Of a DNA stretch of 64,000 bases, positions 23,075 to 40,336 are shown piece after piece. The number at the start of each line of letters is the position of its first letter. Positions within the stretch are counted from its first letter, which is position 1. Location of the stretch: positions 48,715-112,714 of the forward strand of contig JAJQGT010000009.1 of NCBI GenBank assembly GCA_021201135.1. Reading direction: 5' to 3'. This stretch comes from Oscillospiraceae bacterium (GTDB lineage Bacteria; Bacillota; Clostridia; Oscillospirales; Ruminococcaceae). A program made the position numbers and the translations under genes. The notes under the pieces are model-generated. The model saw nothing but the letters and a program-made list of their open reading frames with translations. It was not told the origin of the DNA and did not search any database.

Positions 23075-24385
23075 TTACAGAATATAGCTCGTCACGCAAT
23101 CGTACCAATGGACAAACCTATTCCCGTTGACGGTGATGATCTCGTTCTCCGGCAGGAGCTCGCTCCAGGGCTTCTTATACTTCCCTATCGCCCAGGTGTC
23201 GGCGTTGAAGCGGCGCCAGAGGACGGTTTTGCCATTCTCGTCAAGATACTGCTCGCTGGCGACGCCGTCCTGGTAGTTCTCGATGTCGACGACACAGACT
23301 GTGTCGTAAACTTTGCCGCCGATGGTGACGGTGTAGCGTCCGACAACATCAAGGACATTCTTCGAGCCGGTGCAGGTGATATTGTCACCGTCCCTCCGGA
23401 TGATGCCCTTCGGGGCGAGGTTCACCTCGTTGCCGCAGTTATCCTCGCCGAAGCCCCAGTTATCGAGGAAGTCGTCGCCGTCAAGGAAGGTGTAGAGCTT
23501 GCGGACGCCGTCCTCAATATGACTTTCGGCTAAGATTCTTGAGTGCGTGTCGGTGAGCTGAGCGACGAAGGTGCGGCAGACGGGGTTGTCGCCGGTGGCG
23601 TTTTGGTCCATCGGGTCAAATTCGGTTGCGTGAATCTCGACACCCTCAATGCCGTGAACCACAGCTTTACCGATGACTTCCATCATGACCTCCTCGGTCT
23701 TTTTCTTTTCGGGGAAGTCGTACATCGCCCAGCTGAGCTTTTCGCCGATTCTCGGAACGACGAACCAGCCCATCATCTCCTCCCACCTGACCGGGAACGG
23801 CTCGAGCGGGGACTTTTCGATTCTGTAATTCGGAATGAGCTCCGGCATGATGTTTAGTGTGTTGTTCATAATAACCTCTTCTTTCTTGGGGTTAAGCCGT
23901 TCGGGGAACTTCCCTCGCAAGCGGCTTTTCGCGTAGTGCAGGCGGCTTTTGACGGTGCCGACGGGGATTCTGAGTATCCTCGCGATATCCGCCTGCGGAA
24001 GCTGTTTGAGATAGTAGAGCCGGAGGATTTCGCTGTCGCGGTCCGAGAGCTCACCGAGTGCCTCCGAGACGTCGCTCCTGAGCGAGATTCCGTGGATTCC
24101 GATTGAAAGCTTCTCCTCGGGGACGCTTTCGATATCCACGAGCTCGAGCTCGCGTGCCATCTCGCGGTAGCGGTCGCGGCACTTGTTGCGGGCGATGCCG
24201 ATAATCCAAGCCTTGAAGCTGTCGCGGTTCTCAAGCCTCTCAAAGCCGAGATACGCCGCAAGATAAACCTCCTGCAGGACGTCTTCGGCTTCGCTTACCG
24301 GGATTTTGAACTTGACGTATCGTTCAACAGCGTTCCTGTTCTCCCGCAAAAGCCTTTCAAATTCTGTCTGCAAAGCAGTTTCCAA
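23075..24385 (-). CDS. ECF-type sigma-70 family factor (about 165 aa) fused to an uncharacterised, non-membrane ~270-aa C-terminal domain
   Basis: GGAGGTGAGG RBS followed by a TTG at 24385. Region 2 is DVLQEVYLAAYLGFERLENRDSFKAWIIGIARNKCRDRY. Region 4 is LSDRDSEILRLYYLKQLPQADIARILRIPVGTVKSRLHYAKSRL. The same frame stays open for about 270 more codons. The track's longer ORF reads through tRNA-His. Confidence 0.8.
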   Translation of the reverse strand: METALQTEFERLLRENRNAVERYVKFKIPVSEAEDVLQEVYLAAYLGFERLENRDSFKAWIIGIARNKCRDRYREMARELELVDIESVPEEKLSIGIHGISLRSDVSEALGELSDRDSEILRLYYLKQLPQADIARILRIPVGTVKSRLHYAKSRLRGKFPERLNPKKEEVIMNNTLNIMPELIPNYRIEKSPLEPFPVRWEEMMGWFVVPRIGEKLSWAMYDFPEKKKTEEVMMEVIGKAVVHGIEGVEIHATEFDPMDQNATGDNPVCRTFVAQLTDTHSRILAESHIEDGVRKLYTFLDGDDFLDNWGFGEDNCGNEVNLAPKGIIRRDGDNITCTGSKNVLDVVGRYTVTIGGKVYDTVCVVDIENYQDGVASEQYLDENGKTVLWRRFNADTWAIGKYKKPWSELLPENEIITVNGNRFVHWYDCVTSYIL

Positions 24386-24473
24386 AGGCCTCACCTCCGA
24401 ATACTTATTAAAACCGGTTTCACTTATATAGTCGCGCAAATCGCGAAAAAGGTTCAAGCACTTTTCAGGAAAA

Positions 24474-24507
24474 GTGCAAAAAAGCGGCTTCAAATCGAAA
24501 CCGCTTT
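24474..24507 (-). terminator. Intrinsic terminator after tRNA-His
   Basis: Minus strand has an AAGCGG...CCGCTT stem followed by TTTTTT. Confidence 0.5.
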
Positions 24508-24512
24508 CATTC

Positions 24513-24590
24513 TGGGGTGGATAATCGGACTCGAACCGATGGTCTTCAGAACCACAATCTGACGCGTTAACCAACTACGCTATACCCACC
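24513..24590 (-). tRNA. tRNA-His (GTG)
   Basis: 78 nt on the minus strand: GGTGGGTATAGCGTAGTTGGTTAACGCGTCAGATTGTGGTTCTGAAGACCATCGGTTCGAGTCCGATTATCCACCCCA. Anticodon loop is TTGTGGT. It has the extra 5' G (G-1) and an encoded CCA. Confidence 0.93.
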
Positions 24591-24679: not shown

Positions 24680-25540
24680 TTAATGGTCGCTCTGATTTTT
24701 CCAGTCATATTTTTTCTTCCTCGGGAAGGAAGCGACGACAAACAAGAGGATTATCAGCGGGATTGCAACGCAGATGGCGACGATTATCGTGTCTATCTTC
24801 GTCGCCTCGGCGGTCACCCTTATCTGCTTGACCTCCGTCGTCTCGACACGCGTGCCCCGCACAAGAAGCCGATGGGTATTGATTCCATATGGCGTGCAGG
24901 TCATGAGCGTCACATAATCCTTCCCGTCCTCGATATAGAGATATTCCATCTCCGAGGGCAGGACTATTGCAATCTGATCGACTTCATATGTGAGAACCTC
25001 GCCCAAGACCGTGATAGTGAACGTGTCCCCTATCTCGAGATCATCAAGGTGGGTGAAGAGCGTTGCGCTCGGCAGTCCGCGATGAGCAGAGATTACCGCA
25101 TGGGTGCTCTCCCCACCGACAGGCAGGCTCGAGCCCTCCATATGTCCCGCACCCGAAGCGAGCACGCCACTCGAGGTGCCGTGATAGATGGGGAGCTCCA
25201 CGCCGATTGACTCAATCGTCACATAGCCCATGACCCCCGAGCCGGTGAGGTCCAAAAGGTCGTAATAGCCGTACTCCTCGAGCAAATCCGTCTGGGAATA
25301 AGCCGCCGCCGAGCCCATTTTCGCCACAAGCTCGTTAAACTCCTGCGCCGCCTCGAGGTATGCCGAATAATCCGCCGCCGACAACGAAGCCGCCGCCTCG
25401 TCATACTCCGTGACAAAGTGCGAAGCGATATTACTGTTCCACCAGTTACTGACGGTAGGGTACAAGAGGACCAGCACTCCCACAATGAGCACCATCAAGA
25501 GCCCCAAAGACCCCAACCATCCTCTTATACTCTTTCGCAT
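24680..25540 (-). CDS. Class C (pilin-polymerising) sortase
   Basis: GGAGGGG RBS followed by the ATG at 25540. N-terminal TM segment, HRGL, the TLMTCTPYGINTHRLLVRGTR catalytic-Cys motif, and the C-terminal TM anchor typical of class C. Confidence 0.88.
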   Translation of the reverse strand: MRKSIRGWLGSLGLLMVLIVGVLVLLYPTVSNWWNSNIASHFVTEYDEAAASLSAADYSAYLEAAQEFNELVAKMGSAAAYSQTDLLEEYGYYDLLDLTGSGVMGYVTIESIGVELPIYHGTSSGVLASGAGHMEGSSLPVGGESTHAVISAHRGLPSATLFTHLDDLEIGDTFTITVLGEVLTYEVDQIAIVLPSEMEYLYIEDGKDYVTLMTCTPYGINTHRLLVRGTRVETTEVKQIRVTAEATKIDTIIVAICVAIPLIILLFVVASFPRKKKYDWKNQSDH

Positions 25541-25652
25541 AAACCCCTCCGGCACTTCGTGCCACCTCCCCTTCCGTGGGAGGCTATAAGTTCGCGTTGC
25601 GAACTTAGGAAGAACGCAAAAGCGTTCTTCCGTTTGTTCTCTCAAAACTTTT

Positions 25653-27257
25653 TTACTTGTCTTCGTCCTTCATTCTCTTTTTGGTGATAAGAAGGATGAC
25701 AGCCCCAATAACCAACACTCCGCCTACAACATAGAAGATGGTAGTACCAATGCCACCGGTGGTGGGCATGGCGCCTGAGGTGGAGTTTGCAACCTCAATC
25801 GCGTAGTATGTGCTGTTATAGGTATTACTAAAATTATCTGCCAATAGCACATAACTACCGTTTCCCGTTTCGGCAATTACAACAGAGGTTGTATTAGGTG
25901 ACGGCATAGCATAACCTGTAGGTGCTGTTGTTTCAGTCAATGTATATGTGCCGACGTCAAGCCCTTGTATGTGAATATAACCATCACTACCGGTGGTGAT
26001 ATAACAAGCATCCACCAAGCCAGATACCCAACCGGTTAAATATCCACTCGAATCAAAAGTGGCATAATAAGTACCATCGCTCAATGTAAACACCGCACCA
26101 GAAAGTGGTGTACGAGGAGTGCTCGTACCAGAAGAATCGTACTTATAGACATAGAACTCATAGATATAAGTTGAGACTGTTGCCTTTCTTGCATCGTCGG
26201 CATCACCGCTCACATAAAGATACGCTGTATTGACATTAGCATTAGCTGTACTGGTAGTGCTGATATCAACACTGCTTGCCGTGCTAACTTTTACTGCATA
26301 CTCAATAACAATATACGCATCTGCAGGTGTAGTTGTATTAAGAACATAGTTATAATAGTTACCTGATGTGGTCTCTGCAAGCAATTCTGCAAAGTCTATC
26401 TCAAAAGAGCAGTCAGTAACTGCAGGATTTGCCGAGCAAGTAGTTGCTGAATAATCATAATCACTATCTGTTAGTACAACTGATTTACTATCGCAGTCAT
26501 ACAACGTTACTGTCATCGTAACATCAGAGTCTAATTCATATCCGTCAGGCAAAACATCGTGAAGTACGAGAGTAGTCGCTTCGTCAATTCCTTTAATGGT
26601 TATCTGGTAATAGAGAGTATCGGTTAAATCTGCCGTACTTACAGAACCGTATGTGCCAGTTGAACCCGTCTTTACCTCTTTTGTAAGAATAGGCTTTGTG
26701 TTTTTATCGTTTACTGTTGCTATCAAGTTTGTCGTTGTCAGTTCAACAAGTGAACCTGCATCTGAAGAAACGAGGTAGTAACCAAGAGCCAAATCGTTGA
26801 ATGTTACTGAACTATTGGCGCTTGCTGTATCGGTAGCTATTACAGTCGGAGTCGAAGAAGTGGTATAATCCGATGCCAACTGTGCAAAAGCCTGAACGAC
26901 CGAAGTAGATGTGTCACCAATCCATGTGACATAGTACTTGCCATCAGCACTGTTATAAGTAACAGACACATAATTTGAAACGTTAGTTGCAGTTCCACCG
27001 TTTCCCGAATTTAGCGTACTGTCCCAGAAGAAATTCAGCCACCCATCCGCAACGGTGTATGAATAAGCGTCAGCTCCATCCCAAGTGAGGTCGAGCAGTT
27101 TATATAACTTATATGTTGCTGATTCTGTGGTGGAAGTATTCTTTACAGTAATCGAACCGGTAGTCGCTTGCGATGTCGCCCCTACCTGCACGGCGCACAA
27201 ACTCATCATCATGACAACCGCAAGCAGTAGGCTTACTATTTTCCTAAGTTTTTTCAT
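25653..27257 (-). CDS. Sortase-dependent pilin / surface protein with Cna-B (SpaA-like) fold and an MPTTG sorting signal
   Basis: AAAGGAGA RBS followed by the ATG at 27257. Signal peptide MKKLRKIVSLLLAVVMMMSLCAVQVGA. E-box-like YTLTETTAPTGY. C-terminus is AMPTTGG, a hydrophobic segment, then KKRMKDEDK. Confidence 0.85.
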   Translation of the reverse strand: MKKLRKIVSLLLAVVMMMSLCAVQVGATSQATTGSITVKNTSTTESATYKLYKLLDLTWDGADAYSYTVADGWLNFFWDSTLNSGNGGTATNVSNYVSVTYNSADGKYYVTWIGDTSTSVVQAFAQLASDYTTSSTPTVIATDTASANSSVTFNDLALGYYLVSSDAGSLVELTTTNLIATVNDKNTKPILTKEVKTGSTGTYGSVSTADLTDTLYYQITIKGIDEATTLVLHDVLPDGYELDSDVTMTVTLYDCDSKSVVLTDSDYDYSATTCSANPAVTDCSFEIDFAELLAETTSGNYYNYVLNTTTPADAYIVIEYAVKVSTASSVDISTTSTANANVNTAYLYVSGDADDARKATVSTYIYEFYVYKYDSSGTSTPRTPLSGAVFTLSDGTYYATFDSSGYLTGWVSGLVDACYITTGSDGYIHIQGLDVGTYTLTETTAPTGYAMPSPNTTSVVIAETGNGSYVLLADNFSNTYNSTYYAIEVANSTSGAMPTTGGIGTTIFYVVGGVLVIGAVILLITKKRMKDEDK

Positions 27258-27333: not shown

Positions 27334-30300
27334 TCAGATGTTCCACCTCCACTTGCACTTTCGCCTTTGTTTTCTATACAAAAGGTACCCGCCACTGCAC
27401 ATGAGCAGTAAGCCGACCGTTGTATACAGTTTAGTCCCCCGCCCGCCGGTCTGGGGCATCTCGGGTCCGCCGGTTACCACCTCGGCGTAGGTGTTGGTGA
27501 AGGTGATGGTGAGGGAGGAGCCACTGGTAGGTGTAAACTCATATTCACCAATGGCGTTGTTCGCAGAAGACACTCCGCCAACCGTGACCGTCAGATTATA
27601 GTTATCAAGGTAAGTTCCGGTATAGTTGACCGATTCGCTTATCGTGTAGGTTTCCCCTGCTGTAAGCCCGATTGTATATGTCGAAGCAACACCGGTTTCA
27701 CCAACGTTGACTTTGAGCGTCTCGACCGTATTACCGTTGCTGTCCTTGATTGTGAAGGTTACTGTGTAGGTTTCGCCGTCAAGCAAATCGTCAAGCTGGC
27801 TTTCAGTCAAGCCTCCGATTTCCTTGACAACCGTCACAACAGGCGTGCTCAGGTAAACGCTCAGATACATTGTGCCTGAATTTATTCGTATACCTGTGGT
27901 GGTGTATTCGTCGAACATGCTTGTATAAGAACCTGTCACTGTTCCACCAGACATGTAATCCATCGGGTTCTTACCGCCGCTCGCCGTTCCCGTTACGCTT
28001 CCGACCAAGCCGTAGCCTGCGGCTGTGTAGGTGCTGATGTTGGCATAGACGTTCGTATAAGGATAAGCAGTATCAGTTTCAGTTTTCACCAGAGTATATG
28101 TACCGGAGTTCTGTTGTCTTGTCCAGTACTCGATAACGTAGGTGATGTCCTGCGAGAAGGTTGCATAGTCAATCAAGTTGCCGACAGTGTTATTCTCTGT
28201 CTGTTGGGCGGTGTCGTAACCACTCGTCTTGGATACGAAGAAGAATCTCGTAACATACTGTTCATCCGGTACGGTGTAGGTTCCGGAATTATATGTCCAC
28301 TCGCCCGTCTGATAGCCATTTGTTGACGATACAGTCCAGATGGTCGCTGTAACAGTATCGCCCTCGTAATCGCCATCTGCCAACTTATAAGTGCCTGAGC
28401 CATCTGTGTTGTTGCCCAGGATACTTTCGATCATTGTTGTGAGTGTTTCCTGCTGGGCATCCTGGCTTATGCCTGCCAGAAGCTTTTCTGCATCTTCGGT
28501 TGACATGATAACGACATACATCTCATCCGTGATATTAGTTCCCTGCCAGCTACCGCCATCGGCAGTTCTCGCTCTGTGGTAGAACGCCCAGTTCAGGGAT
28601 TCGCCACCTATTGTAAGAACGTCCTGATACAAAGCTCCGGCAGAGTTGGCGTTCAGTTCTGCAAAATGGTCTCCGGCAGCAGCCTGGCTTCCTCCGGCAT
28701 AGATGCCGTTTGTGCCGTAATAGTAATCAGGGTCTGTATATGCTCCTATTTCTATCGCGCCGTCCTCAGTAGTTGTTCCCCAGAATGGAACATCAGTTGA
28801 GCTATTGCTATATTCAAAACTACAATTCAGAAGCTCTGCCGCATATGGGACATGCTTGACAGCGCTTGTATAAGTTGTATTGGTTTCACTGTCGTAAACT
28901 TCTACATAGTAATAACACAGACCGCCTTGGTCGATAGCTACGTTTACGGTGGAGTTATTGTCACCCAGAGCATCGGAGTTAGTAACCTCACTGTAATTTT
29001 CATTGTTTGTGCAGGTACTCAGGTCGGCGCTCAGTGTGTAATCCGATTTATACCAAGTAACGGTATATCTTGAATCGGTCAGGTCGACCGCCACGTTGTC
29101 GATAACCAGATGTGCCTCATATTCGCCGTCCGTAACCAGGTTATCAATAATGGTGAGACCGTCTGTATTTACAACTACGCAAAGTGTTTGCCACTCGTTG
29201 TCTCCGCTATCACTCCACGGACCGAAATAAGAATTACCGTTGTATCTGTTTACAGCCATGCCATCGGACGACGTAAGTCTGACTTTTCCGCCACTTGCAG
29301 ATACAGTAATCGCTTGCCTAGTAGAGCTGACTGTAACTGCAGATGAAGATATATTCAGGTATTTACCGTTGCCATCGCTGATGTAGTAAACGCCATCTGT
29401 GCCGGTGGATTCAAATGTCCATACAGTAACGCCATCGCCTTCAACATAGGTAGTATCATCCTCTGTATATGTGGTAACCGAAACGCCTTGAAGATGTGAA
29501 TTGTCATACTCAGTAGATGTCAGTGCATATTTACTTGTCAAGTTTACAATAGCGTAACTCTTGCCGTCAAGGTCAGTAAGCAAAACTTCGCCTTCGCCTG
29601 CGGTTGCTTCAGTGAGCGTGTATAAAACCAGATAGTCGCCGGTATCAGTTCCCGTGTGACTATATCCCTTGAAAGGATTATTAGCATTATCGCCACCGTA
29701 GTTATTTATGTAATATGTGTCCCTATCCGGTCTTGCTGAGATTGTAATTACACCGGTATCTATGTATGTGACAGTAAACACGGTTGCGTTGTTTGTGCCA
29801 GTCACAAGGCTCAGATTACCGTTGTTATTCATTCTCAGGTAATACCCACCGGAAGAGATGTAATAACCATTTCCCGATTTAGTAAAAGTCCATTCCGAAA
29901 GCGTTGATGAATCGGTGCTCGAAACTTCGGCTTTCAACATACCGTTGTTGCTTTCCGTTGCCATCATTGCGTACGTTCCGGTATAGCTTATGATTATGTA
30001 GCTGTTCCCATCCAATTCGTCCGTGCTGGTTATTGTTGACCGGGTTAATTCACCAGAGCCAACCACCGTCACAACCGCGAATACCGAGAAGCCCTCGGTC
30101 TGGAAAGTCAGGATTTCTTGGTCGTTGGAAGTACCGCTCACAAGTGAGACGGTATCAAGCACAACAGGCTCGGTGCCGATTTCTTCATAGTGAAGAACGG
30201 AAACCGACGAGCTTTCTTGCGAAAGTGTTGTTTCTTTAAAGGTAAGGGTAACTATTGCAGAATTGCTGACGGAGATATACTCCCCACCGTCCTCATAAGC

Positions 30301-31521
30301 GGCATAGAAGCTGATATCATAGAAATGAACTTCGTCAATTTTGCCGTCGACTGCGGATTCAGCTTGTTCCGTCAAGGTTTCATAATCGTCATCCTCATCG
30401 CTGAGCTCTGTGACTACAAGCACAGCATTTTCCGGAACACTGCTGTCCGAAGGAAGAATAACATTTACCGAAATATTGTCGTCCTCATAGCTGTATGTGC
30501 GGATATATGAAGCGACTTCCCACACTTCCTCGGTTTCTTCCTCAGCCTCTTCGATAACTTCGATTATTTCAGTCTCTTCCGTTTCTTTGACTTCTTCGGT
30601 CTCCTCTTCGGTTTCGTCTATTTCTATCTCTTCGGATTCTTCTGTTTCTTCAATTTCTTCGTCTGTTTCTTCTGCTTCCGCATCTTCCGTCTCTTCTTCT
30701 GCTTCTTCCGAAACGGCGATGATGCCGTAGCCGGAGATGGTGGGGTCGTTGAGAGCATAGATATGTTCACATACGGTGTCGACTTCGGAGACGGTGTAGT
30801 CGCCCTCGATGATGGTCACAACTCCCCCGCTGATGTCGGTGGAAGCGACAATTCCGACGCGGTCGATTCTTCCGTCATAGTCCGAGTCGAAGAAGACGAT
30901 GTCTCCGGCAAGCGGAGTGTAAGCAGAAGCCTCGGCGTAGGAACCGATTTCCGAGAGCTCAACAGCCCACGAATAGGCTCCGGAATTGAGCGGGAAGGCG
31001 GTTCTGTCGATGCCGGCATAATTCAGGCAGAAGGAGACGAACATCGCGTCCCAAGTGCCGTATTCGTTGCCGTACCACGCGCCGTAGCGGGTGTAGCCAT
31101 AGCGGGTTACGCCGTCTTCTCCGGGCGAGAAATTGGCGGTGGATTCTGTGTAGCCGAGCTGACTGTAGGCGATGTTCACGACGTCCGTCCGCAAATCTCC
31201 TGTAAGCTCGGGGAGAGTCGCCTTCCAGACGGTGGCGTCCTCAACGTCGGCATTGAGATTTATCAGGCAGTCGACCGTGTGGGAGTGCTCTTCGAGCTCA
31301 CAAATGAGGTTGCCCTCCTCGTCGTAGCACTCTTCGGTGTGGACATGCTCCTCATAGCCGCAGAAGGTCTCGTTCGACATGGTGATGCCGGTGTAGCGGA
31401 GCTGCCAATAGACGATGAGAGAGACGATTACGGCTAAAAAAAGCAAAACAGAACCAAGCACCAATCGTTCGCGACGATTTTGCCTGAATCTGTCTATATA
31501 GGTCAATAAGGTACTTTTCAT
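27334..31521 (-). CDS. Large (~1395 aa) sortase-anchored surface protein: N-terminal TM/signal anchor, duplicated Cys/His knuckle, CHAP/NlpC-P60-like domain, Glu/Thr-rich linker, long beta-rich region, MPQTG sorting signal
   Basis: CGYEEHVHTEECY...CELEEHSHTVDC. NIAYSQLGY...WDAMFVSFCLNYAGI...GDIVFFDSDYDGRIDRVGIV. C-terminus is PEMPQTGG, a hydrophobic segment, then RKQRRK. The start is the ATG at 31521 or the TTG at 31548. Confidence 0.8.
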   Translation of the reverse strand: MKSTLLTYIDRFRQNRRERLVLGSVLLFLAVIVSLIVYWQLRYTGITMSNETFCGYEEHVHTEECYDEEGNLICELEEHSHTVDCLINLNADVEDATVWKATLPELTGDLRTDVVNIAYSQLGYTESTANFSPGEDGVTRYGYTRYGAWYGNEYGTWDAMFVSFCLNYAGIDRTAFPLNSGAYSWAVELSEIGSYAEASAYTPLAGDIVFFDSDYDGRIDRVGIVASTDISGGVVTIIEGDYTVSEVDTVCEHIYALNDPTISGYGIIAVSEEAEEETEDAEAEETDEEIEETEESEEIEIDETEEETEEVKETEETEIIEVIEEAEEETEEVWEVASYIRTYSYEDDNISVNVILPSDSSVPENAVLVVTELSDEDDDYETLTEQAESAVDGKIDEVHFYDISFYAAYEDGGEYISVSNSAIVTLTFKETTLSQESSSVSVLHYEEIGTEPVVLDTVSLVSGTSNDQEILTFQTEGFSVFAVVTVVGSGELTRSTITSTDELDGNSYIIISYTGTYAMMATESNNGMLKAEVSSTDSSTLSEWTFTKSGNGYYISSGGYYLRMNNNGNLSLVTGTNNATVFTVTYIDTGVITISARPDRDTYYINNYGGDNANNPFKGYSHTGTDTGDYLVLYTLTEATAGEGEVLLTDLDGKSYAIVNLTSKYALTSTEYDNSHLQGVSVTTYTEDDTTYVEGDGVTVWTFESTGTDGVYYISDGNGKYLNISSSAVTVSSTRQAITVSASGGKVRLTSSDGMAVNRYNGNSYFGPWSDSGDNEWQTLCVVVNTDGLTIIDNLVTDGEYEAHLVIDNVAVDLTDSRYTVTWYKSDYTLSADLSTCTNNENYSEVTNSDALGDNNSTVNVAIDQGGLCYYYVEVYDSETNTTYTSAVKHVPYAAELLNCSFEYSNSSTDVPFWGTTTEDGAIEIGAYTDPDYYYGTNGIYAGGSQAAAGDHFAELNANSAGALYQDVLTIGGESLNWAFYHRARTADGGSWQGTNITDEMYVVIMSTEDAEKLLAGISQDAQQETLTTMIESILGNNTDGSGTYKLADGDYEGDTVTATIWTVSSTNGYQTGEWTYNSGTYTVPDEQYVTRFFFVSKTSGYDTAQQTENNTVGNLIDYATFSQDITYVIEYWTRQQNSGTYTLVKTETDTAYPYTNVYANISTYTAAGYGLVGSVTGTASGGKNPMDYMSGGTVTGSYTSMFDEYTTTGIRINSGTMYLSVYLSTPVVTVVKEIGGLTESQLDDLLDGETYTVTFTIKDSNGNTVETLKVNVGETGVASTYTIGLTAGETYTISESVNYTGTYLDNYNLTVTVGGVSSANNAIGEYEFTPTSGSSLTITFTNTYAEVVTGGPEMPQTGGRGTKLYTTVGLLLMCSGGYLLYRKQRRKCKWRWNI

Positions 31522-31597
31522 GCTAACCGACCCCGCAAACTCCCCCAATGTTGATTACGACTGATTTATGGAACCGGATCTCCATGCGGAAATCTTT

Positions 31598-31636
31598 TTG
31601 CAAATAAGCAAAATGCCTCCCACGGAAATGGGAGGC
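31598..31636 (-). terminator. Intrinsic terminator inside the 5' leader of the pilus operon (attenuator candidate)
   Basis: Minus strand reads GCCTCCCA-TTTCCG-TGGGAGGC followed by ATTTTGCTTATTTG. It lies about 135 nt downstream of the predicted promoter and about 75 nt upstream of the start codon. Confidence 0.6.
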
Positions 31637-31730
31637 AAAGGCTCAGAACTCGGAAGCATGATATATTTACATAATATAAATATAGCACAAGCGAGCAGTT
31701 TTCGGCAACAATTCCGTGCCGGAGGCACTA

Positions 31731-31737
31731 CCCCCCC
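31731..31737 (-). repeat. G7 homopolymer in the pilus-operon leader
   Basis: Plus strand reads cactaCCCCCCCacgc. It lies about 35-40 nt downstream of the predicted transcription start. Confidence 0.95.
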
Positions 31738-31779
31738 ACGCTATTTATAGTATATCAAAATACGACTTTATGTATGTAC

Positions 31780-31809
31780 AGTTTAACATTTTCGCTCCGA
31801 GTTTGTCAA
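31780..31809 (-). promoter_or_regulatory. Promoter of the pilus operon
   Basis: Minus strand reads TTGACA, 18 nt, TAAACT, with an extended -10 (TGt). Confidence 0.5.
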
Positions 31810-31988
31810 CAGCTATTTCTGAATTGTCTTAAATTTTGTACGTTATCACAATTTTGTTGTCACAAGCCGTGCGATTTTGTTCAAAACAAGGGGTGTTAGA
31901 AAGATAATTATGCCCTATAAAGCATATGACAACCCCTGCCAGGGACAATCATCCCAGACAGGGGCTCTGTTACTATGCTTTCGGCATG

Positions 31989-34900
31989 TTATCTTCTCTT
32001 TGCCGAGGCAACAGCAAGTGCAGCTATCACCATCGGAAGAATCGACAGCGCAATTCCCGTTTTCGGATTGCTTTCCGTCTCAGAAGCTTCTGTGGCTTTC
32101 CCATCCTCTTCCTCGTCGGTATTCGTCGCCTCTACGGGTTCCTCGATTTCTACCACAGGCATGTAGGTGTTGGTTATCGTGAACGAGCCGTTCCCGCCGG
32201 TGACCGTCGCCGTGTATTCTGCCGGGACATCCAACTCTACAACTGTATAATTGTAAGCCGCCGTTCCGCAGTAGACGGGAAGATGCGTGAAGCTTGCGGT
32301 CCAGTTGTTGGCTTCCGAAAGGGTTATCGTCCTGCCGGTTGCTACACCGTCCCGATAGAGCGCAACGGTTATGCTCGCGGGTCTGAGCCCGTCGGCATTG
32401 TTGTCGTCATTCCAGACCTTCGTTACCTCAATACCGGTATAAACCTGCGAAGGCTCAACATGCGGAGTGTGGGAGTTGGTTACGGTAAATCCGTTTTCGG
32501 CATCGCCGGTAATGGCGCTTGTGTAGCCATCAACCTTCACTTCTTCGAGTGTATACTCAATTTCCGCGCCTTCGTTCCAATATACGGGAAGGTCAGTAAA
32601 TGTGTACTCCCAGTTGTTGTCCTTGGTGAGCTCGGCGGTGTAAGTGTTGCCATCCGAGCCGGTCAAGGTGACGGTGATGCTGTCGGGGCGTACTCCGTCG
32701 TAATCTCCCGCATCGCTCCAGACCTTGGTAACAGAGACTTCGGTCTTATAAGGAGTATGAGAATTGGTTATCTCAAAGCCGGTTGCGGCATCTCCGATAG
32801 GGTCGCTCGCCGTGTATCCGCTCGGGACACCGGTCTCTTCAACGGTATATGAAACCTCATACTGCGTTCCGTTGACTGTCTCATATGTCGGAAGCTCTTT
32901 CCATGTATAGGTCAGGGTATTCGCAGGAAGAGTCTGCGAATCAACCTCAGTCTCAACACCGTTCACTGTCTTGTAAAGAGTTACGGTGTAATCTTCGCGC
33001 AAACCGTCCCGATTATCCTCATCATCCCAGACCTTATTAACGGTGACTTCGGTAGTTATCTGAGTATTCGTGAAGTTATAGACATCTTGCTTCGATGTAT
33101 AACCGCTTACCGTCGCTTCCTTCACAGTATACACATACGCATGACCGTCGGTCAGGTCGTACTTATCCAATCCGGTGAACTCGTATGTAGTTGTGCCGTC
33201 AGAAAGCGTGACGTCATCAATCTTCGTGCCATCCCGATACAGTTCAATCGTAATGTCAGGGTGAGTCGTCCCGGTCGGGTCTACCCATGTTTTTGTGCCG
33301 CTAACGGAGATAGTATCTTGTGCAATGGTATTGGTGAAATCATAGCCGCTCTGTTCCGATGTGTAACCACTTACCGCCGCTTCCTCCACGATGTACTCGT
33401 ACGCATGACCATCGGTCAGGTCGTACTTATCCAAGCCGGTGAATTCGTATGTGGTGGTGCCATCGGAAAGAGTTGTGCTCATGAGGTACGCACCGTCCCG
33501 ATACAACTCAATCGTGATGTCGGGGTGAGTCGTGCCGGCAGGGTCTACCCATGTCTTTGTGCCACTGACAGAGATGGTAACTTGTGCAATGGTGTTTGTG
33601 AAATTGTTGCCGCTCTGTTCCGACGTGTAACCGCTGACCTCCGCTTCCTTCACAGTATACACATACGCATGACCATCAGTCAGGTCGTACTTGTCAAGAC
33701 CTGTGAACTCGTATGTTGTTGTTCCGTTGGAAAGCGTGACATCGTCAATCTTTGTGCCGTCCTGATATAGCTCAATCGTGATGTCGGGATGGGTTGTACC
33801 GGTCGGGTCTACCCATGTCTTGGCGCCAGTTATGACAACTTCATCCTGCTTGATGGTATTGGTGAAGTCATAACCTGTTGAAGTTTGCTCAGGTGTCGAC
33901 GTATAACCGCTAACCTCTGTCTCCTCGACTTTGTATGTGTAAGTCTTACCGGTTGAAAGGTCATACTTATCAAGATTGCTGTAGGTGTAGGTGTTGCCAC
34001 TCCACGATACGGTTGCGCTGACTTTGTCCCAGTCGCTGTCGGTGGGATTATCTGCGGTTGTTCTGTACAGGGTCAGAGTAATCTCGGTGGCATTATCATG
34101 CGTAAGACCGCCGTCGACCCATGTCTTGGCGCCACTGACGGAGATGGTGACCAGCGGTGGCTCATAGGTGTTGGTGATAGTATAACCATTATCGGCATCG
34201 CCGGTGATGTCACTTCTATAGCTGTTGACGGTGACCTCTTTGACGCCGTAAGCTATCGGGTCGCCGTTTTCATCATTTACGGGAAGGCTCTTGAAGCTAC
34301 CTGTCCAGTTGTTACCGGCGTTCAACGTGATTGCCTGGGTAGAATCGGAACCGTTCTTGGTAAGAACCACGGTAATTTCACTCGGACGGGCGCTGAGATT
34401 ATTGTCGTCACTGACCCAAGCCTTGGTAACTTTGACTTCGGTTGTCTTGAAACTATAGCTATTGATTATGGTATAGTTATTCGAAGAATTGCCTTCACCA
34501 CTGCTTGTGTATATCGAAGAAACGCCTTCTTCTTCGACAGTATAAACTATCTTATTACCGTTAGTATCATACACATCAAGATTGGTGAATGTATAACTCC
34601 ATGTGTTGTCGGCAGTCTCATTCGCATCGGTCAGGTCAACACTCGCAATCTTACTGCCGCCTGCAAGAAGGTTTATGGTGATTGAAGTACGGGTTTTATC
34701 CCTGTTTCCACCATCATCCCAAACCTTGTAAACCGTGATTGATGTCTTGGCAACATTGGTCACTGAGACGGTGTTGGAACTATTGCCATTCACAACGCCA
34801 TCAACAATTGTGATCGTTACGTCTGATGCCGCTGTGTAGCCGTCGGGTACATCCGTCTCGGACAAGGTGTATGTGCCGTTGTATTCAAGACCTGTGAACT

Positions 34901-37376
34901 CGCCTGTGTTTGCACCGGTAATCTTGACGGTCTGGGCAGAACCTGCTGTGCCGTTTGCAGGCGTGAGAGTAAACTCAGCTACCAAACTGTCAATATCAGT
35001 TCCGCTCAAAGTGTTGCCGCCTGCATCTGCATAGGACTTGGAAACTGTGAGAGTTGCTGTCTGAGCCGCGGTCTTGTCTGCCTTGTTGGTGACGGTGACA
35101 GTGTTATTACTACAACCGCTCACAACGCCGTCGACTATTGTTATTTCAATCTCCGTCGCGTCAGCAGTGAAGCCTGACGGTCCGTTTGTTTCGGTGAGCT
35201 TATAGGTGCCGTTGTAGGCAAGGTCGGAGAACGTTTCCGCGTCTGAGCCGGTGATTGTGAATGTCTCGGAATATGTGTCCGTATTTCCGGTAGATACGAG
35301 AGTGAACGTCGCCTCGTAGCTGTCAAGTCCGGTTGTCAGCGCAGTTCCCTCGGAGTCGGTGTAGACCTTGGAAACTGTGAGAGTTGAAGTCTTATAGGTA
35401 TTAGTGATAGTATAACCATTATCGGAATCACCGGTGATTTCGCTAGCATAGCCACTGACGGTAACCTCTTTGACACCGTAAGCTATCGGGTCGCCGTTTT
35501 CGTCGTTTACGGGAAGGTTCCTGAAGCTGTCTGTCCAGTTGTTGCCGGCGTTCAACGTGATTGTCTGGGTGGAATCGGAACCGTTCTTGGTAAGAACCAC
35601 GGTAATTTCACTCGGACGGGCGCTGAGATTATTGTCGTCACCGACCCAAGCCTTGGTAACTTTGACTTCGGTTCTGCAAATTTCGTGGGTGTTGGTGATT
35701 TCGAAACCGTTGACTCTTCCTGTGTACCCGCTCGGTGCAGTCGAAACGCCATTTGCATCAACTTCGGCGACTGTGTAATCGATTTCAAAGCCGTTATCGT
35801 TCTTCGGGAGATTATCCCAAGTGTATTCCCAACCGTTTGCCTCGGTGACACTGACGGTATCAACTATCGTGCCGTCTGCAAGAAGGCTTACCGTTACTTC
35901 CGTCGGGCGGAGCTTGTCGCGGTCGCTGTCGTCCTCCCACTTCTTGGTGACGGTGACGCTGGTGGTCTGCGGCTGAGTGGTGTCAACATCGTCCTCGACG
36001 GTTATGGTCTTCGTACTGCTGCCGTCAATCTTGCCGTCGGCAACCGCGAAGGTGACAGGGTCAGCAACCTTATAGCCACTCGGGGCGACCGTTTCGGTCA
36101 GTGTGTAGCTTCCGTCCGGCAAGCCATAGAATTCTATGGCGGTGTCCGTGGTGGTGAAGCTCAGGCTGTAGTTATCGGAGCTCAGGGTAAAGGCTTGGTT
36201 GGCGGTTACGCTTTCAAGAGAAGTGTTCGCCTTAAGGGTGAATGTCGCTCCGGGAAGCTGTGTCGACCCGCCGGTGGCGTACTTGTTGATGGTGAGGGTA
36301 ACGGAGGGAGTGTTAGTGATTCGGACAGATGCGCTGTAGTAGTTGGTAGGTGTAACGTCTTCCTTGATATAGCTTCCGGAAGTGTTCGTTGTGGCGATAA
36401 CCGTACCGGACGAGTCAACCGTCAATGTAGCCTCATCGGTACCGCTCGTAACGTAATAGGTTCCGGCAGTGAGTCCCACTACATTTACCCACCAGTATGG
36501 GTCATCCTTCTGACCCGCAAAGGAACCGGCATAGGTTACCGTGGCTTCGTTTGAGCTGTTCACGGTAACAATGATGTTATAATCACTTTCGAAATTCTCT
36601 GCGGAAAGCGAGCCGTCGGTCGTTGTGATAGTCAGCACTGCACCCTCGGCGGCTTTGATTTTTACCTTCGGAGTGACCGTTATGTCGGTGGTGCCGCCTT
36701 TGAACACGGTAATCGGAATACCGTTGATGTTATCTATCGTCAATGCGCTTGCGCTCTGAAGATAGACATAGTGAATATCCTGGTCCGCCGTGTAACCGTC
36801 GGGCGTGCCTGTTTCTTTGATTTCGTATATTACGTCGTAGTTGATAATGACGGTGTTATTTCCTTTGTCTACCGTCAGTTGCTGATACGACGAACTGCGC
36901 GCAGTTCCGTCCTCATTTACGGGAGTTACGGTGAAGGTCGCACCATAGATGGGCGCCAAGCTTATGGAATCCAGCTTGTCAATAGAAAGTGTAACCTGCC
37001 TTCCCGTGATTTCGGAGGTCAGCTTGTAGGATACGGTATAGGATTTTTCACTCGAATCTATAGCCACGCTGTCTGAGCCGCTTATCGTGACGGTATTGTC
37101 AAGCTCACCGCTTGTATAAGCACCGTTGTCAAACAGGATTTCACAATAGTATATGATAGTGATAGGTGTCGAATCCGGAATCGTAAATGTGATTATATGC
37201 GTGTCGTAATCATAGCTTACGGTGTAATCGGAGCCGCGTTCGAGAAGCTCATAGCAATAAAACGAGTTATATGCGTCTATTATGATGTTATCGGCTTTAA
37301 GCACCATGACGTTTGACGGATTGTTTATAGTTGTGCTGTAGCGATTATAAAGATTATTGGCATCGTAGCCTGACAC
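31989..37376 (-). CDS. Giant Cna-B-repeat (collagen-adhesin-like) surface protein with NPKTG sorting signal. Apparently 5'-truncated (no signal peptide, no RBS); possible pseudogene.
   Basis: 1795 codons. More than 10 Cna-B-type repeats (VTKxWxDxxNxDGxRP...) and the SpaA-like YTLTETVAPSGY. C-terminus is NPKTG, a hydrophobic segment, then KRR. The frame stays open upstream of the first GTG and runs into the 3' end of the MmeI-like gene. Confidence 0.8.
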   Translation of the reverse strand: MSGYDANNLYNRYSTTINNPSNVMVLKADNIIIDAYNSFYCYELLERGSDYTVSYDYDTHIITFTIPDSTPITIIYYCEILFDNGAYTSGELDNTVTISGSDSVAIDSSEKSYTVSYKLTSEITGRQVTLSIDKLDSISLAPIYGATFTVTPVNEDGTARSSSYQQLTVDKGNNTVIINYDVIYEIKETGTPDGYTADQDIHYVYLQSASALTIDNINGIPITVFKGGTTDITVTPKVKIKAAEGAVLTITTTDGSLSAENFESDYNIIVTVNSSNEATVTYAGSFAGQKDDPYWWVNVVGLTAGTYYVTSGTDEATLTVDSSGTVIATTNTSGSYIKEDVTPTNYYSASVRITNTPSVTLTINKYATGGSTQLPGATFTLKANTSLESVTANQAFTLSSDNYSLSFTTTDTAIEFYGLPDGSYTLTETVAPSGYKVADPVTFAVADGKIDGSSTKTITVEDDVDTTQPQTTSVTVTKKWEDDSDRDKLRPTEVTVSLLADGTIVDTVSVTEANGWEYTWDNLPKNDNGFEIDYTVAEVDANGVSTAPSGYTGRVNGFEITNTHEICRTEVKVTKAWVGDDNNLSARPSEITVVLTKNGSDSTQTITLNAGNNWTDSFRNLPVNDENGDPIAYGVKEVTVSGYASEITGDSDNGYTITNTYKTSTLTVSKVYTDSEGTALTTGLDSYEATFTLVSTGNTDTYSETFTITGSDAETFSDLAYNGTYKLTETNGPSGFTADATEIEITIVDGVVSGCSNNTVTVTNKADKTAAQTATLTVSKSYADAGGNTLSGTDIDSLVAEFTLTPANGTAGSAQTVKITGANTGEFTGLEYNGTYTLSETDVPDGYTAASDVTITIVDGVVNGNSSNTVSVTNVAKTSITVYKVWDDGGNRDKTRTSITINLLAGGSKIASVDLTDANETADNTWSYTFTNLDVYDTNGNKIVYTVEEEGVSSIYTSSGEGNSSNNYTIINSYSFKTTEVKVTKAWVSDDNNLSARPSEITVVLTKNGSDSTQAITLNAGNNWTGSFKSLPVNDENGDPIAYGVKEVTVNSYRSDITGDADNGYTITNTYEPPLVTISVSGAKTWVDGGLTHDNATEITLTLYRTTADNPTDSDWDKVSATVSWSGNTYTYSNLDKYDLSTGKTYTYKVEETEVSGYTSTPEQTSTGYDFTNTIKQDEVVITGAKTWVDPTGTTHPDITIELYQDGTKIDDVTLSNGTTTYEFTGLDKYDLTDGHAYVYTVKEAEVSGYTSEQSGNNFTNTIAQVTISVSGTKTWVDPAGTTHPDITIELYRDGAYLMSTTLSDGTTTYEFTGLDKYDLTDGHAYEYIVEEAAVSGYTSEQSGYDFTNTIAQDTISVSGTKTWVDPTGTTHPDITIELYRDGTKIDDVTLSDGTTTYEFTGLDKYDLTDGHAYVYTVKEATVSGYTSKQDVYNFTNTQITTEVTVNKVWDDEDNRDGLREDYTVTLYKTVNGVETEVDSQTLPANTLTYTWKELPTYETVNGTQYEVSYTVEETGVPSGYTASDPIGDAATGFEITNSHTPYKTEVSVTKVWSDAGDYDGVRPDSITVTLTGSDGNTYTAELTKDNNWEYTFTDLPVYWNEGAEIEYTLEEVKVDGYTSAITGDAENGFTVTNSHTPHVEPSQVYTGIEVTKVWNDDNNADGLRPASITVALYRDGVATGRTITLSEANNWTASFTHLPVYCGTAAYNYTVVELDVPAEYTATVTGGNGSFTITNTYMPVVEIEEPVEATNTDEEEDGKATEASETESNPKTGIALSILPMVIAALAVASAKRR
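33062..33853 (-). repeat. Three tandem 264-bp (88-aa) coding repeats within the adhesin
   Basis: The units ...TKTWVDPxGTTHPDITIELYxDG...YEFTGLDKYDLTDGHAYxYxVxEAxVSGYTSxQ...FTNT occur three times consecutively. A fourth, more diverged unit lies upstream. Confidence 0.85.
34171..34443 (-). repeat. Dispersed intragenic repeat, copy 1 (273 bp)
   Basis: Hand alignment with 35401-35673 shows 23 mismatches in 273 nt. Both copies encode TEVKVTKAWVxDDNNLSARPSEITVVLTKNGSDSTQ... Confidence 0.85.
35401..35673 (-). repeat. Dispersed intragenic repeat, copy 2 (273 bp)
   Basis: See copy 1. The offset between copies is 1230 bp, which preserves the frame. Confidence 0.85.
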
Positions 37377-37462: not shown

Positions 37463-40336
37463 TCAGAGGGTTGCCGTTGTTAAGAGTCTCCCCGTCATCT
37501 CCCGATACATCTTCATCAGCATCGCCACAATCTCCGCCTCCGGCATATCCTTCGGAATCCCATAAGCCGCCGCCACCGCCGCATCATTAGCCTGATGCGC
37601 CTTAACGAGCTCTGGATAAAGATACATATGCTCGCCATACATATCAGCAAGGCTTGCCTCTGGATACTTTGCACGAGCATCGAGAATAGCTTGAGCCGTC
37701 TTTTCGATTTTCGCCTTTTGCTCATCAGTAGGGCTACACCATGGGAAATTGTTGTAGACGACATTGATAGAATAGCAATATCTCATTTCAAGTCTTCCAC
37801 AGACAGCTCTTGTCCAAGCCATATGCACGCTTGAAGTTAAAACGCCAAAATGATACAAGGTTGCATTTTGACTGATTTTAACACGATTACTGCATAGAAC
37901 ATCTGGAGTCATAAAGCCCATTGGAATATATAATCGCTTTTCTGAAGTGATTTCCGGTATAACTATATAGCTATCAGTTGGAAAATTCTCAACGTGAAAC
38001 TTTGTAGGAAAGTTTGCAATTTTTCTTGTACCTTCACTTTTACTCGAAAGGCGATATTGGCGCACAGAATCAACACGCTTTAGGCACTCTGACATACTCA
38101 TTAACTCGCTTGGTGGGCAATGCTTTAGCCATAAACAATAGCGCGGTTTACTGTTTAGAAATTCGTCTGCTCCATACCATAGCTTAAAATACTTTTCTGC
38201 CTTCGGCTCTACCTTGAGAAATTCGTCTTTTTCTTCCTCAGTAAACAGATAAAATCCATTGTCAATCGGCTTATTACCGATTCCAAATCTAGGAACATCA
38301 CAAATTGGCTTGCTTCGGCTTTCGACGAAGACATTATCGGCATCGATAAGATAGCCGTTGATATTTTTGACTTCTTGCACTTCGCCGTTTTCGTAAATTC
38401 TTTTTGGCTTACTGCTAAATGCATAGCTAAATCCTACTATAACGCAATGGACATGAGCTTTCATGCTGGCTTCGCTGTCCCAACGGAAAGTTCTGTGGGC
38501 AAAGTCTATGTGCACACCATCTTCATATAGTGGTTTCCATAGGTTTGCCACACTTTCGCCCTGACAAATCGAGTTTGTCGAAACTAGTGCGGCTATTGTG
38601 TTTGTGCCTTTGATAAGGTCTGCACACTTTTTGTACCACCCAGAAACATAGTCAAGATTACCGACATTCTTCCATTCCTTGCCGAAGACAGATAAAAGGT
38701 CATCCTTTTGCTCTTTCGACATCATTCTCGCACCCACAAATGGTGGATTTCCCATTATGAAGTCTACATTACGGTCGTCGTGTTCTTTGATAACATCGTT
38801 CCAGTCTAATCGGAGGGCATTTCCTTCTTTGATAAACGCGTTGGTTTTCAGGGGCAGGAAGTCGAGGGATTGGTTGATTATTTTTTCAGTTTCGCGCATC
38901 ATCTGGCTTTCGGCTATCCATAGGGCGGTTTTGGCGACGGAGACGGCGAAGTCGTTGATTTCGATGCCGTAGAACTGCCCGATGGAGACCTTGATGAGCT
39001 CTTCTTCGGAGACGCCGCCGAAGACAATCTGATTCTCTATCTGCTTCTTGCGGAGACTGATGAGCTCGGCGATGACCTTGTTCTCAAGCTTTCGGAGCGA
39101 GACATAGGTCTCGGTCAGGAAGTTGCCCGAGCCACAGGCGGGGTCGAGAAACTTGAGACTTGCAAGCTTGTTCTGATAGTTTGTGAGCTTCTGCTTTCTC
39201 TTTTTTAGGTCCTGCTCCACCATGATTCCGTCAAGCTCAGCTTTCAGGTCGTCGAGGAAAAGCGGGTCGATGACCTTGTGGATGTTTTCGGGCATGGTAT
39301 AGTGCATGCCGCCGTTGCGACGGGTTTCGGGGTTCAGGGTGCTTTCGAAAATCGCACCGAAGATGGTCGGGCTTATCTCCGACCAGTCAAAACCAGAGCT
39401 CGCATCGCGCAAAAGAAGATTCCTGATTTCATCGTTGAACGGCGGGATGACGTGCTTCTTTTCGAAAAGACTGCCGTTGACATAGGGAAATTCCGCCAAA
39501 AGCGGCTCGTCATCCTTGAGGAAAGGGTCGCGCTCGTCCATCGGCTGATTCAGGACGTCAAAGAGGTTCTGGAGCGCCTTCCTCGTGTGCTGGGTGTCGA
39601 AGCTACGGAGATACTTGTTGAACTTGAGGTGCTCACCGAAAATGTCGGCGTCCTCGGCATAAAGGCAGAACACGAGACGGACGCAGAGGACGTTCAAGTC
39701 TTGATATGTCCGTTCATTGTGCGGCTCGGGATATTGCTTGAGTAGCGCATCGTAAAGCTCGCCGACAATCTTGCCCGCCGCCTGCGATATTTCAAGCTCA
39801 CGCTCGGTGTTGTCCGCCTCAATGTCAACGAGGAAGTCGAGACGGTGGTATTCTTTTTCAAGGTCTTTGAGCTCAATCACTTCCGGCTCGCCGTACGAGT
39901 CCGCCATGTCATAGACGTGGAAGGTTTGGAAATTGCAGATGACGAGCCAGCGGTTCTTGTCGAAATAGCCGAGGCTGTCGTCGTATCTCTTCGCCTGCTC
40001 AAACGGTGTTTTCAGGGTGCCGTCCGATTGCTTTATCTTCTCGGTGAGGCTTTTATTGATGCTCTTCTGTTCAATCAGGACTTTGGTCTTTGGAATTCTC
40101 GCGTCGATAAAGCTCGTGTGCCCGAGCTGAACTTGCTCCTCGAAGATAACGTATTCCTCGGGGTGCTCCACGCCGTAAACGTCCCGCAAAAGAGAAGTCC
40201 AGAAGGATTGACTTTGCCCCTTCTCATAGCCCTTCCCTTCCCAGAACTCCGCAAACTTCTTTGCATTAACTTTCCTCTGAGTATCCGTCACAATAATCCC
40301 GTCCTTCGCAGTCAGTATAAATACATTATACCCCAA
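37463..40336 (-). CDS. MmeI-family type IIL restriction-modification enzyme (single-chain endonuclease + N6-adenine methyltransferase + target-recognition domain)
   Basis: 957 aa. N-terminal D...EXK nuclease motif (SFIDARIPKTKVLIEQKS), SAM motif I LDPACGSGNFL, motif IV GNPPFVG, and a long C-terminal TRD. Confidence 0.85.
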   Translation of the reverse strand: MGYNVFILTAKDGIIVTDTQRKVNAKKFAEFWEGKGYEKGQSQSFWTSLLRDVYGVEHPEEYVIFEEQVQLGHTSFIDARIPKTKVLIEQKSINKSLTEKIKQSDGTLKTPFEQAKRYDDSLGYFDKNRWLVICNFQTFHVYDMADSYGEPEVIELKDLEKEYHRLDFLVDIEADNTERELEISQAAGKIVGELYDALLKQYPEPHNERTYQDLNVLCVRLVFCLYAEDADIFGEHLKFNKYLRSFDTQHTRKALQNLFDVLNQPMDERDPFLKDDEPLLAEFPYVNGSLFEKKHVIPPFNDEIRNLLLRDASSGFDWSEISPTIFGAIFESTLNPETRRNGGMHYTMPENIHKVIDPLFLDDLKAELDGIMVEQDLKKRKQKLTNYQNKLASLKFLDPACGSGNFLTETYVSLRKLENKVIAELISLRKKQIENQIVFGGVSEEELIKVSIGQFYGIEINDFAVSVAKTALWIAESQMMRETEKIINQSLDFLPLKTNAFIKEGNALRLDWNDVIKEHDDRNVDFIMGNPPFVGARMMSKEQKDDLLSVFGKEWKNVGNLDYVSGWYKKCADLIKGTNTIAALVSTNSICQGESVANLWKPLYEDGVHIDFAHRTFRWDSEASMKAHVHCVIVGFSYAFSSKPKRIYENGEVQEVKNINGYLIDADNVFVESRSKPICDVPRFGIGNKPIDNGFYLFTEEEKDEFLKVEPKAEKYFKLWYGADEFLNSKPRYCLWLKHCPPSELMSMSECLKRVDSVRQYRLSSKSEGTRKIANFPTKFHVENFPTDSYIVIPEITSEKRLYIPMGFMTPDVLCSNRVKISQNATLYHFGVLTSSVHMAWTRAVCGRLEMRYCYSINVVYNNFPWCSPTDEQKAKIEKTAQAILDARAKYPEASLADMYGEHMYLYPELVKAHQANDAAVAAAYGIPKDMPEAEIVAMLMKMYREMTGRLLTTATL

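Follow-up and report, generated by a model that had tools for sequence, protein, structure and literature searches.

In this study, we analysed the region that precedes the sortase-pilus operon in a stretch of 64,000 nucleotides (the window, by which the whole stretch is meant), and found that it is one divergent member of a many-copy family of leaders which is confined to its lineage, a group of gut Oscillospiraceae, and stands before pilus and other surface-protein genes. We read the region as the 5' leader of the operon and as a divergent member of a family of cis-acting leader attenuators that would be OFF by default, a reading to which we give a probability of about 60%. The family serves many surface-protein genes and is not a pilus-specific device. 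What makes the layout in the window more than chance is its recurrence, not the single locus.

A promoter, a U/G7 tract, a small hairpin and a U-tailed terminator follow one another in that order on the minus strand ahead of the sortase-pilus operon (Table 1), and the promoter, tract and terminator lie before the first pilus gene just where a first-pass annotation of this DNA had placed them. The same annotation credited the leader with a promoter of its own and with an intrinsic terminator inside it, and the elements agree with this. The promoter matches 10 of 12 consensus positions and carries the TG extension; the U-tailed stem-loop has the form of an intrinsic (Rho-independent) terminator, with 10 pairs, six of them G-C, a 4-nt loop and the tail TTTTGCTTAT (31637-31601). 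Its 5' arm carries the CCUCC core of the family, it lies about 95 nt beyond the G tract, and it is kept in two orthologues, in one of which a compensatory change turns a G-C pair into A-U. Transcription is predicted to start at about 31773, which would give a leader of about 252 nt, and all leader elements fall within the 467-nt gap between the adhesin stop codon and the next ATG. The 1395-aa protein encoded by the first operon gene carries a membrane segment at its N-terminus, repeats rich in Cys and His, and an LPXTG-type anchor at its C-terminus.

Table 1. Leader elements and neighbouring genes in the window.
Feature	Position	Strand	Details
Sigma-70-type promoter	31780..31809	(-)	-35 TTGACA 31809-31804; 18-nt spacer; extended -10 TGtTAAACT 31788-31780
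A/U-rich leader 5' segment	31739..31773	(-)	Equivalent of the family's variable P0 hairpin region
U + G7 tract, proposed antiterminator strand	31731..31738	(-)	U31738, G7 31737-31731; complementary to CCUCCCA 31635-31629
P1 hairpin GUGCC-UCC-GGCAC	31716..31728	(-)	After the UA 3' of the tract; two-sided changes at 5/5 P1 pairs in the family
Long-helix 3' strand, ACUGCUCGCUUGUGCUAU	31682..31699	(-)	Partner AUAGCGUGGG.GGGUAGU; MFE and centroid folds
Intrinsic terminator	31601..31637	(-)	Stem-loop UGCCUCCCA-UUUC-CGUGGGAGGCA 31637-31614, then U-rich UUUUGCUUAUUUG to 31601
First operon gene, 1395-aa LPXTG protein	27334..31521	(-)	ATG at 31521
SpaA-fold pilin	25653-27257	(-)	Downstream of the 1395-aa LPXTG gene
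Sortase	24680-25645	(-)	Downstream of the SpaA-fold pilin
1795-aa Cna_B-repeat adhesin	31989-37376	(-)	Upstream of the leader
MmeI-type restriction-modification gene	37463-40336	(-)	Upstream of the adhesin

Several further observations were made at this locus. A scan of 1.5 kb gave six promoter-like sites, against 1.5 +/- 1.2 in shuffles. One of them lies between the G tract and the terminator (31679-31708, minus strand; TTGCCG, 18 nt, TGcTATATT); it is not kept in the more distant orthologue, overlaps the helix that sequesters the tract (see below), and is probably not a promoter. The Cna_B/SpaA-repeat adhesin ORF opens at GTG without an evident signal peptide, 87 nt downstream of the MmeI-family gene, and a long imperfect hairpin with a weak U tract right after its stop codon (31908-31989, minus strand) may terminate the adhesin gene. 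On the other side, a 499-aa sigma-70 r2/r4 ORF (23075-24589, minus strand; TTG start as listed) with a long C-terminal extension adjoins the sortase gene; it overlaps a tRNA gene (24516-24589), so its real start must lie further in. In sequencing run X2, one 611-nt contig of low depth (5.55) joins 31524 to 31712, with 187 nt of the leader absent, and may come from a paralogue or a relative with a shorter leader.

The recurrence of the leader was established by several searches. BLAST against 61 genomes (the window's own and 60 relatives) found the 25-nt G-tract/hairpin segment again elsewhere in the same genome and in relatives; the part of the first pilus gene that encodes the protein's N-terminus also recurs, separately, as paralogues. 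A regular expression (G6 or more, then a small hairpin) found five copies in the window's 2.33-Mb genome (48.7% G+C). An IUPAC pattern run over 185,579 species, with one genome each, gave 70 matches, 17 of them with full context and all 17 labelled as Oscillospiraceae, Clostridiales or 'Ruminococcus sp.' metagenome-assembled genomes; the other 53 were chance hits in coding or GC-rich sequence. In each of the 22 copies found first, TTGAC and an extended -10 stood at the equivalent place, with the -10 box starting 42-64 nt before the tract. In addition, a C-rich and mostly CCUCC-type 5' arm of the downstream hairpin was present in 21 of 21 evaluable copies, the remaining one ending at a contig end; the first hairpins of class C copies carry CUCUCC, CCCUCC or CCCCCU. 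Because neither search pattern contains CCUCC, its association with the pattern-found copies is not circular. Genome-wide, CCTCC occurred in the 5' arm of 49 of the 1474 terminator-like hairpins of the window's genome (3.3%). As a separate observation, GGAGG occupied that arm in only two such hairpins of the same genome, an asymmetry larger than the eight known copies account for.

A covariance model was then built from 15 copies, all of which contain CCUCC, so that the presence of CCUCC in model matches is partly circular. The model gave 126 matches (E up to 0.01) in 12 of the 40 genomes of the genus, eight of them in the window's genome, where the promoter/G-tract/hairpin/CCUCC-terminator layout occurs at least eight times. 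Positive genomes carried 4-19 copies, except for one (G009) with a single weak match. Another 150 genomes of the family (149 of other genera and one more of the genus), searched with stricter filters, gave zero model matches. The 12 positive genomes share a slightly different NusG score band, which fits a single subclade. Ninety of the 126 matches entered the first analysis and 36 lay outside it; 30 weaker ones served later as a hold-out set, and two cut by contig ends were omitted. The window copy itself scores only 23 bits, and has neither the RCCC/linker core nor the second hairpin described below. A canonical leader lies about 770 nt past the window's right end (L131; G000:C20:113486-113561, minus strand), before a gene for a secreted protein starting MLKKLLCVMISALMVVSLLP.

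The common architecture was derived from a renewed search of the loci, which returned 101 matches; four reverse-strand or partial artefacts were dropped, 95 of the remaining 97 had a G run of at least five, 91 of these were unique, and 83 of the 91 parsed as canonical once copies with CCUCC or CCC inside P1, which the layout parser had misread, were corrected. The canonical layout is Y-G(5-9)-UA-P1-RCCC-linker-CCUCC-R-...-GGRGG-U tail. UA stands directly 3' of the tract in 81 of the 83 copies, and the base before CCC is A in 58 and G in 23, hence pairable with the U that follows the tract in 81 of 83; the last three G's of the tract and this U pair with RCCC just past P1. The linker is A-rich and 7-10 nt long in 79 of 83 copies, with A as first base in 69 and an AA end in 75. 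P1 is present in 59 distinct sequences, and larger branched inserts replace it in some copies. In the model alignment, which was fitted to the model and favours its structure, 96.2% of cells pair, compared with 85.5% in shuffles (none of 500 reached the observed value). The covariation score of this model-fitted alignment was 0.206, against 0.088 when shuffled and at most 0.027 with slid partners, and P1 covaried strongly in it. From the predicted start to the G tract there are about 36-55 nt; the P0 region at the 5' side varies between subfamilies and is thus unlikely to be a shared aptamer. Outside the helices, conservation is seen in the A-rich linker and in an A bulged out behind GGGU; besides the pairing segments, we recognised no ligand-pocket-like conserved core, and no leader peptide was seen.

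The terminator hairpin that opens with the CCUCC arm, P2, is followed by a U-rich tail in 71 of 77 copies. The usual further element is a second CCUCC...GGAGG hairpin whose 3' arm is the Shine-Dalgarno sequence of the gene, and the CCUCC/GGRGG core is kept in the consecutive hairpins. Among the 77 canonical copies with an identified downstream ORF, the Shine-Dalgarno sequence is hidden in P2 or in the following hairpin in 60: the 3' arm of P2 lies at most 20 nt from the start codon in nine, and 51 have a further hairpin of the form 'pyrimidine arm ... AAGGAGG ... start', with at least four U's between Shine-Dalgarno sequence and start in 48 of the 51. Neither arrangement was found in 17.

Central to the proposed switch is the pairing of the G tract with the 5' arm of the terminator. 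For the window, the first-pass annotation had described seven pairs, one of them G-U, between the tract and CCUCCCA, and these can be read from the sequence: U31738 faces A31629, G31737-G31735 face C31630-C31632, G31734 faces U31633, and G31733-G31732 face C31634-C31635. The window class thus follows the canonical rule shifted by one base, with U and six G's opposite CCUCCC and A. Complementarity of tract and terminator arm is present in all copies. As the G's and CCUCC are invariant, the alternative helix draws its covariation support from one flanking pair only, Y:R, in which Y precedes the tract and R follows CCUCC. Across the 83 canonical copies, Y:R was C:G in 44, U:A in 23, U:G in 15, A:G in 1 and C:A in none. 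The corresponding counts were 21, 10, 7, 1 and 0 for clusters at 80% identity, 10, 4, 5, 1 and 0 for clusters at 70% identity, and 20, 5, 4, 0 and 0 for the 29 hold-out copies (30 fetched, 29 with a G run; five parsed by hand). The pair could therefore form in 82 of 83 canonical and 29 of 29 hold-out copies, and about 12 C:A cases would be expected under independence among the 83. Fisher p-values were 1e-10 by sequence, 4e-5 at 80% clusters and 0.03 at 70% clusters; they overstate independence, the copies being related paralogues and orthologues, and set an upper limit to how strong the evidence can be. In the model, Y and R are unpaired positions, so the pattern cannot stem from it. Covariation in homologous leaders had been named as a check on the annotation, and the ability of Y and R to pair was kept there; these comparative sequence data support the putative helix between tract and terminator arm. 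Two other candidate pairings were judged by eye and set aside: 5' linker with 3' linker, and an antiterminator extending beyond Y:R, both of which lacked consistent complementarity.

Folding predictions gave a divided answer on the length of the tract, on which, according to the first-pass annotation, the stability of the alternative structure would depend. In both the MFE and the centroid fold of the window leader, the tract sits in a long helix with ACUGCUCGCUUGUGCUAU and the terminator forms independently, with z-scores of -3.3 and -3.9 against shuffles. AUAGCG, at the 3' end of the A/U-rich segment, is part of this helix, and both the sequestering helix and the terminator persist when the window is folded to a consensus with its two orthologues. 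The sequestering helix is specific to class A copies, where it stands in place of the RCCC of the family. When the tract of the window leader was set to 4-11 G's, the terminator-forced fold was better by 8.2-16.0 kcal/mol without any trend with length, and the probability of the terminator pair was 1.000 throughout. In the canonical copies, by contrast, the predicted median ddG (antiterminator minus terminator) fell from 14.2 kcal/mol at n=4 to 9.9 at n=5, 10.2 at n=6, 7.7 at n=7, 4.7 at n=8 and 3.7 at n=10. The dependence on tract length is thus partly supported, being predicted by the models of the canonical family and not by those of the window's divergent copy. With eight or more G's, the CCC and CCUCC helices are predicted to be able to form side by side and stack. 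The predicted energies favour the terminator in nearly all canonical copies, which implies that the antiterminator cannot form unaided at equilibrium.

These results suggest the following mechanism. A strong housekeeping-type promoter would start the RNA about 40-55 nt upstream of the G tract. If the 5' G's of the tract and the preceding pyrimidine pair with CCUCC-R, the 5' arm of the terminator would be withheld and antitermination would follow; the freed GGRGG could then take the next CCUCC, by which the ribosome-binding site would be released. The leader would in this way form a chain of alternative pairings running from G through CCC, CCUCC, GGRGG and CCUCC to the Shine-Dalgarno sequence. 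Since the terminator fold wins without help, expression would need something that favours the G-tract helix, and the leader would be OFF by default. In the window copy, the pairing of U+G6 with CCUCCC+A would be available, with the tract predicted to be locked in the class-specific long helix and no second hairpin. This leader may exert read-through control of pilus expression, as the first-pass annotation had proposed.

Two triggers appear about equally likely. First, a ligand or factor might bind the junction with the bulged A-rich linker; if the antiterminator formed as modelled, 8-9 nt of linker would bulge out between two stacked helices, which makes the linker a plausible candidate binding site. 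Second, the balance might be tuned heritably by slippage of the G tract. Two specific triggers were considered and rejected. For c-di-GMP, no GGDEF domain was found in the 100%-complete genome, while the control search was positive in 8 of 14 genomes; RF01051 and RF01786 gave no match either, and the RF01051 control also matched nothing, so the RF01051 result is uninformative. As regards antitermination by LoaP or another NusG paralogue, 39 of the 40 genomes of the genus had one NusG-domain match and one 83%-complete genome had none; all 12 motif-positive genomes had exactly one each.

The second trigger can be developed into a reading of its own, in which the G tract would work as a dial, hypermutable and heritable, with its effect exerted through RNA folding, that is, phase variation by way of a leader attenuator. 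Gain or loss of G's by replication slippage would make the G-tract:CCUCC helix more or less favourable relative to the terminator, and the succession of CCUCC/GGAGG hairpins would relay this change to transcription read-through and ribosome access. The lengths found in nature are consistent with a variable tract: the 83 copies have 5 (1 copy), 6 (26), 7 (45), 8 (9) or 9 (2) G's, and tract length differs in 8 of 17 clusters with flanks at least 90% identical, where assembly error is possible. Summed over pairs, length differences came to 27 nt over about 259 tract positions, against 56 gap columns over 5180 flank positions, an indel density about 10 times that of the flanks in assemblies that may contain errors. 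Tract length is the main difference between near-identical copies, and in run X1 a contig of about 90% identity has one G fewer at 31731. Length polymorphism among close relatives, one of the marks of phase-variable tracts, is thus seen at assembly level. We consider this reading possible but tentative, and would sooner doubt it than adopt it; no report of phase variation through a leader RNA attenuator was found in the open-access literature. If it were true, the 4-19 leaders per genome (the weakly matching genome excepted), each of which precedes the gene of a different secreted protein (pilus, BspA-like or other), could allow combinatorial surface variation without invertible DNA.

It is also conceivable, though unlikely, that the leader is a constitutive attenuator without any switch, in which the terminators merely damp a strong promoter, the G tract and P1 form a 5' stabilising or processing structure, and the likeness of the tract to the 3' arm of the terminator has no regulatory use. 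Such an attenuator would agree with predicted energies that consistently favour the terminator and with the lack of a recognised pocket-like core beyond the pairing segments. However, the covariation of Y:R, with zero C:A in 83 and 29 copies, is hard to explain without pairing. The conservation of the CCUCC/GGRGG core across consecutive hairpins and the rarity of CCUCC arms in ordinary terminators, given above, also speak against it.

The copies might, moreover, be independent trans-acting sRNAs, units of about 130-170 nt from promoter to terminator that merely lie upstream of genes. Each unit does have its own strong promoter and its own terminator, and there are many per genome (4-19, with the one exception mentioned). 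We nevertheless hold this to be improbable: every examined copy is oriented toward the adjacent gene, the last hairpin holds the Shine-Dalgarno sequence of that gene in 60 of 77 copies, at most 20 nt from the start or just before it, and no separate promoter was found in the interval between terminator and start codon of the window. An element acting at the DNA level, either an operator for a DNA-binding regulator or a phase-variable promoter spacer, is very improbable. The G tract with its inverted repeat does keep a constant distance from the promoter, some 50-65 nt downstream of the -35 box, and the homopolymer varies in length, as such an element might; but the P1 arms covary freely (59 sequences, two-sided changes at 5/5 pairs) as in an RNA helix and unlike DNA recognised by a protein, and the tract lies downstream of the -10 box, outside the promoter spacer. 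Finally, the terminator sits between two same-strand genes and could in principle belong to the upstream Cna_B adhesin gene, with G7 and hairpin incidental, but some 350 nt separate it from the upstream stop codon, a consensus promoter precedes it, and chance juxtaposition is already contradicted by the recurrence of the whole layout before unrelated genes in 12 genomes and can hardly be entertained.

Most ORFs downstream of the leaders open with a shared signal peptide of the MAKRLLCV..LSVLM..LP..A type. A Pfam scan of 52 of the 96 distinct downstream proteins found BspA-type LRR_5, GLUG, fn3, C-type lectin, Big_2 and Listeria-Bacteroides repeats, as well as DUF11, Wzz, signal peptidase S26, PP2C, FHA, dynamin-like and Sel1 matches, and 21 of the 52 had no Pfam match. 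Two downstream ORFs without a Pfam match look pilin-like, by eye, at the start after the signal peptide. Large LPXTG proteins like that of the window occur as paralogues under canonical leaders in the same genome. This range of genes indicates that the regulon is the secreted and surface proteome and not pili alone. Unrelated passenger domains follow a nearly identical signal peptide right after the leader at loci L092-L181, and near-identical signal peptides suggest that a promoter-leader-signal-peptide cassette was duplicated or recombined onto many genes. The class C copies (L005, L006, L011) stand before a gene for a small coiled-coil protein that matches DivIVA weakly, behind which comes a gene for signal peptidase I, and at L007 and L013 a paralogue of the window's pilus protein comes directly after such a signal peptidase gene.

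The leader matches no known riboswitch or RNA family in Rfam 15, in agreement with the earlier remark that it belongs to no recognised riboswitch class. A cmscan of the leader region (E up to 10) gave only five chance-level matches of at most 19.5 bits, the 19.5-bit one, to a viral CRE at 31908-31989, being dismissed as chance. Across the whole 64-kb window the Rfam scan matched two tRNAs and nothing else, and nine other copies of the family (E up to 1) gave three unrelated sub-threshold matches and no family. No description of the motif was found in a literature search that covered the listings and abstracts of open-access papers.

Gut Oscillospiraceae are abundant and their gene regulation has barely been explored. 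The findings suggest that one RNA device serves pili, BspA-type LRR, GLUG, lectin and Ig-like proteins, a signal peptidase and an exopolysaccharide chain-length factor. Its architecture is short and simple: a single G-rich strand and repeated CCUCC/GGAGG arms would couple the control of termination with that of translation. If a ligand or factor flips the switch, the family would amount to a new, orphan class of riboswitch-like RNAs, whose clear regulon could help in guessing the signal; if tract length sets expression, it would offer commensals an additional RNA-based route to surface variation.

Among known systems, the pyrG attenuator of Bacillus subtilis, which works by CTP-sensitive reiterative transcription, comes closest in mechanism. 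According to the published account, G's at the 5' side of its leader bind the pyrimidine-rich 5' arm of a downstream terminator hairpin and prevent termination; at low CTP, RNA polymerase slips on the GGGC start site and adds the extra G's (PMC7039003). The likeness lies in poly-G pairing with the terminator 5' arm, which is backed here by the covariation of Y:R. Unlike in pyrG as described there, the tract is template-encoded, internal and partly held by a CCC partner, and the genes served are surface-protein genes and not pyrG. By prediction, the G run does not stand at the start site, a consensus promoter lying 42-92 nt upstream of the tract in the copies examined. A promoter at the tract itself was considered and rejected: A-rich, -10-like hexamers occur 5-7 nt before the tract without a -35, and the consensus promoter and the covarying P0 lie upstream.

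In trp-type 1:2/2:3/3:4 attenuators and in riboswitch expression platforms, exclusive helices choose between terminator and antiterminator, and some platforms hide the Shine-Dalgarno sequence. The leader family resembles them in its mutually exclusive helices; it differs in that no leader peptide was seen and no aptamer recognised, and in that all competing segments share a G-rich/CCUCC core. Homopolymeric contingency loci are familiar from Neisseria, Campylobacter and Bordetella, where the known tracts act in coding frames or promoter spacers. A poly-G of 6-9 beside surface-protein genes, with a length that varies between near-identical copies, recalls these loci, whereas the tract described here would act through RNA folding in a leader.
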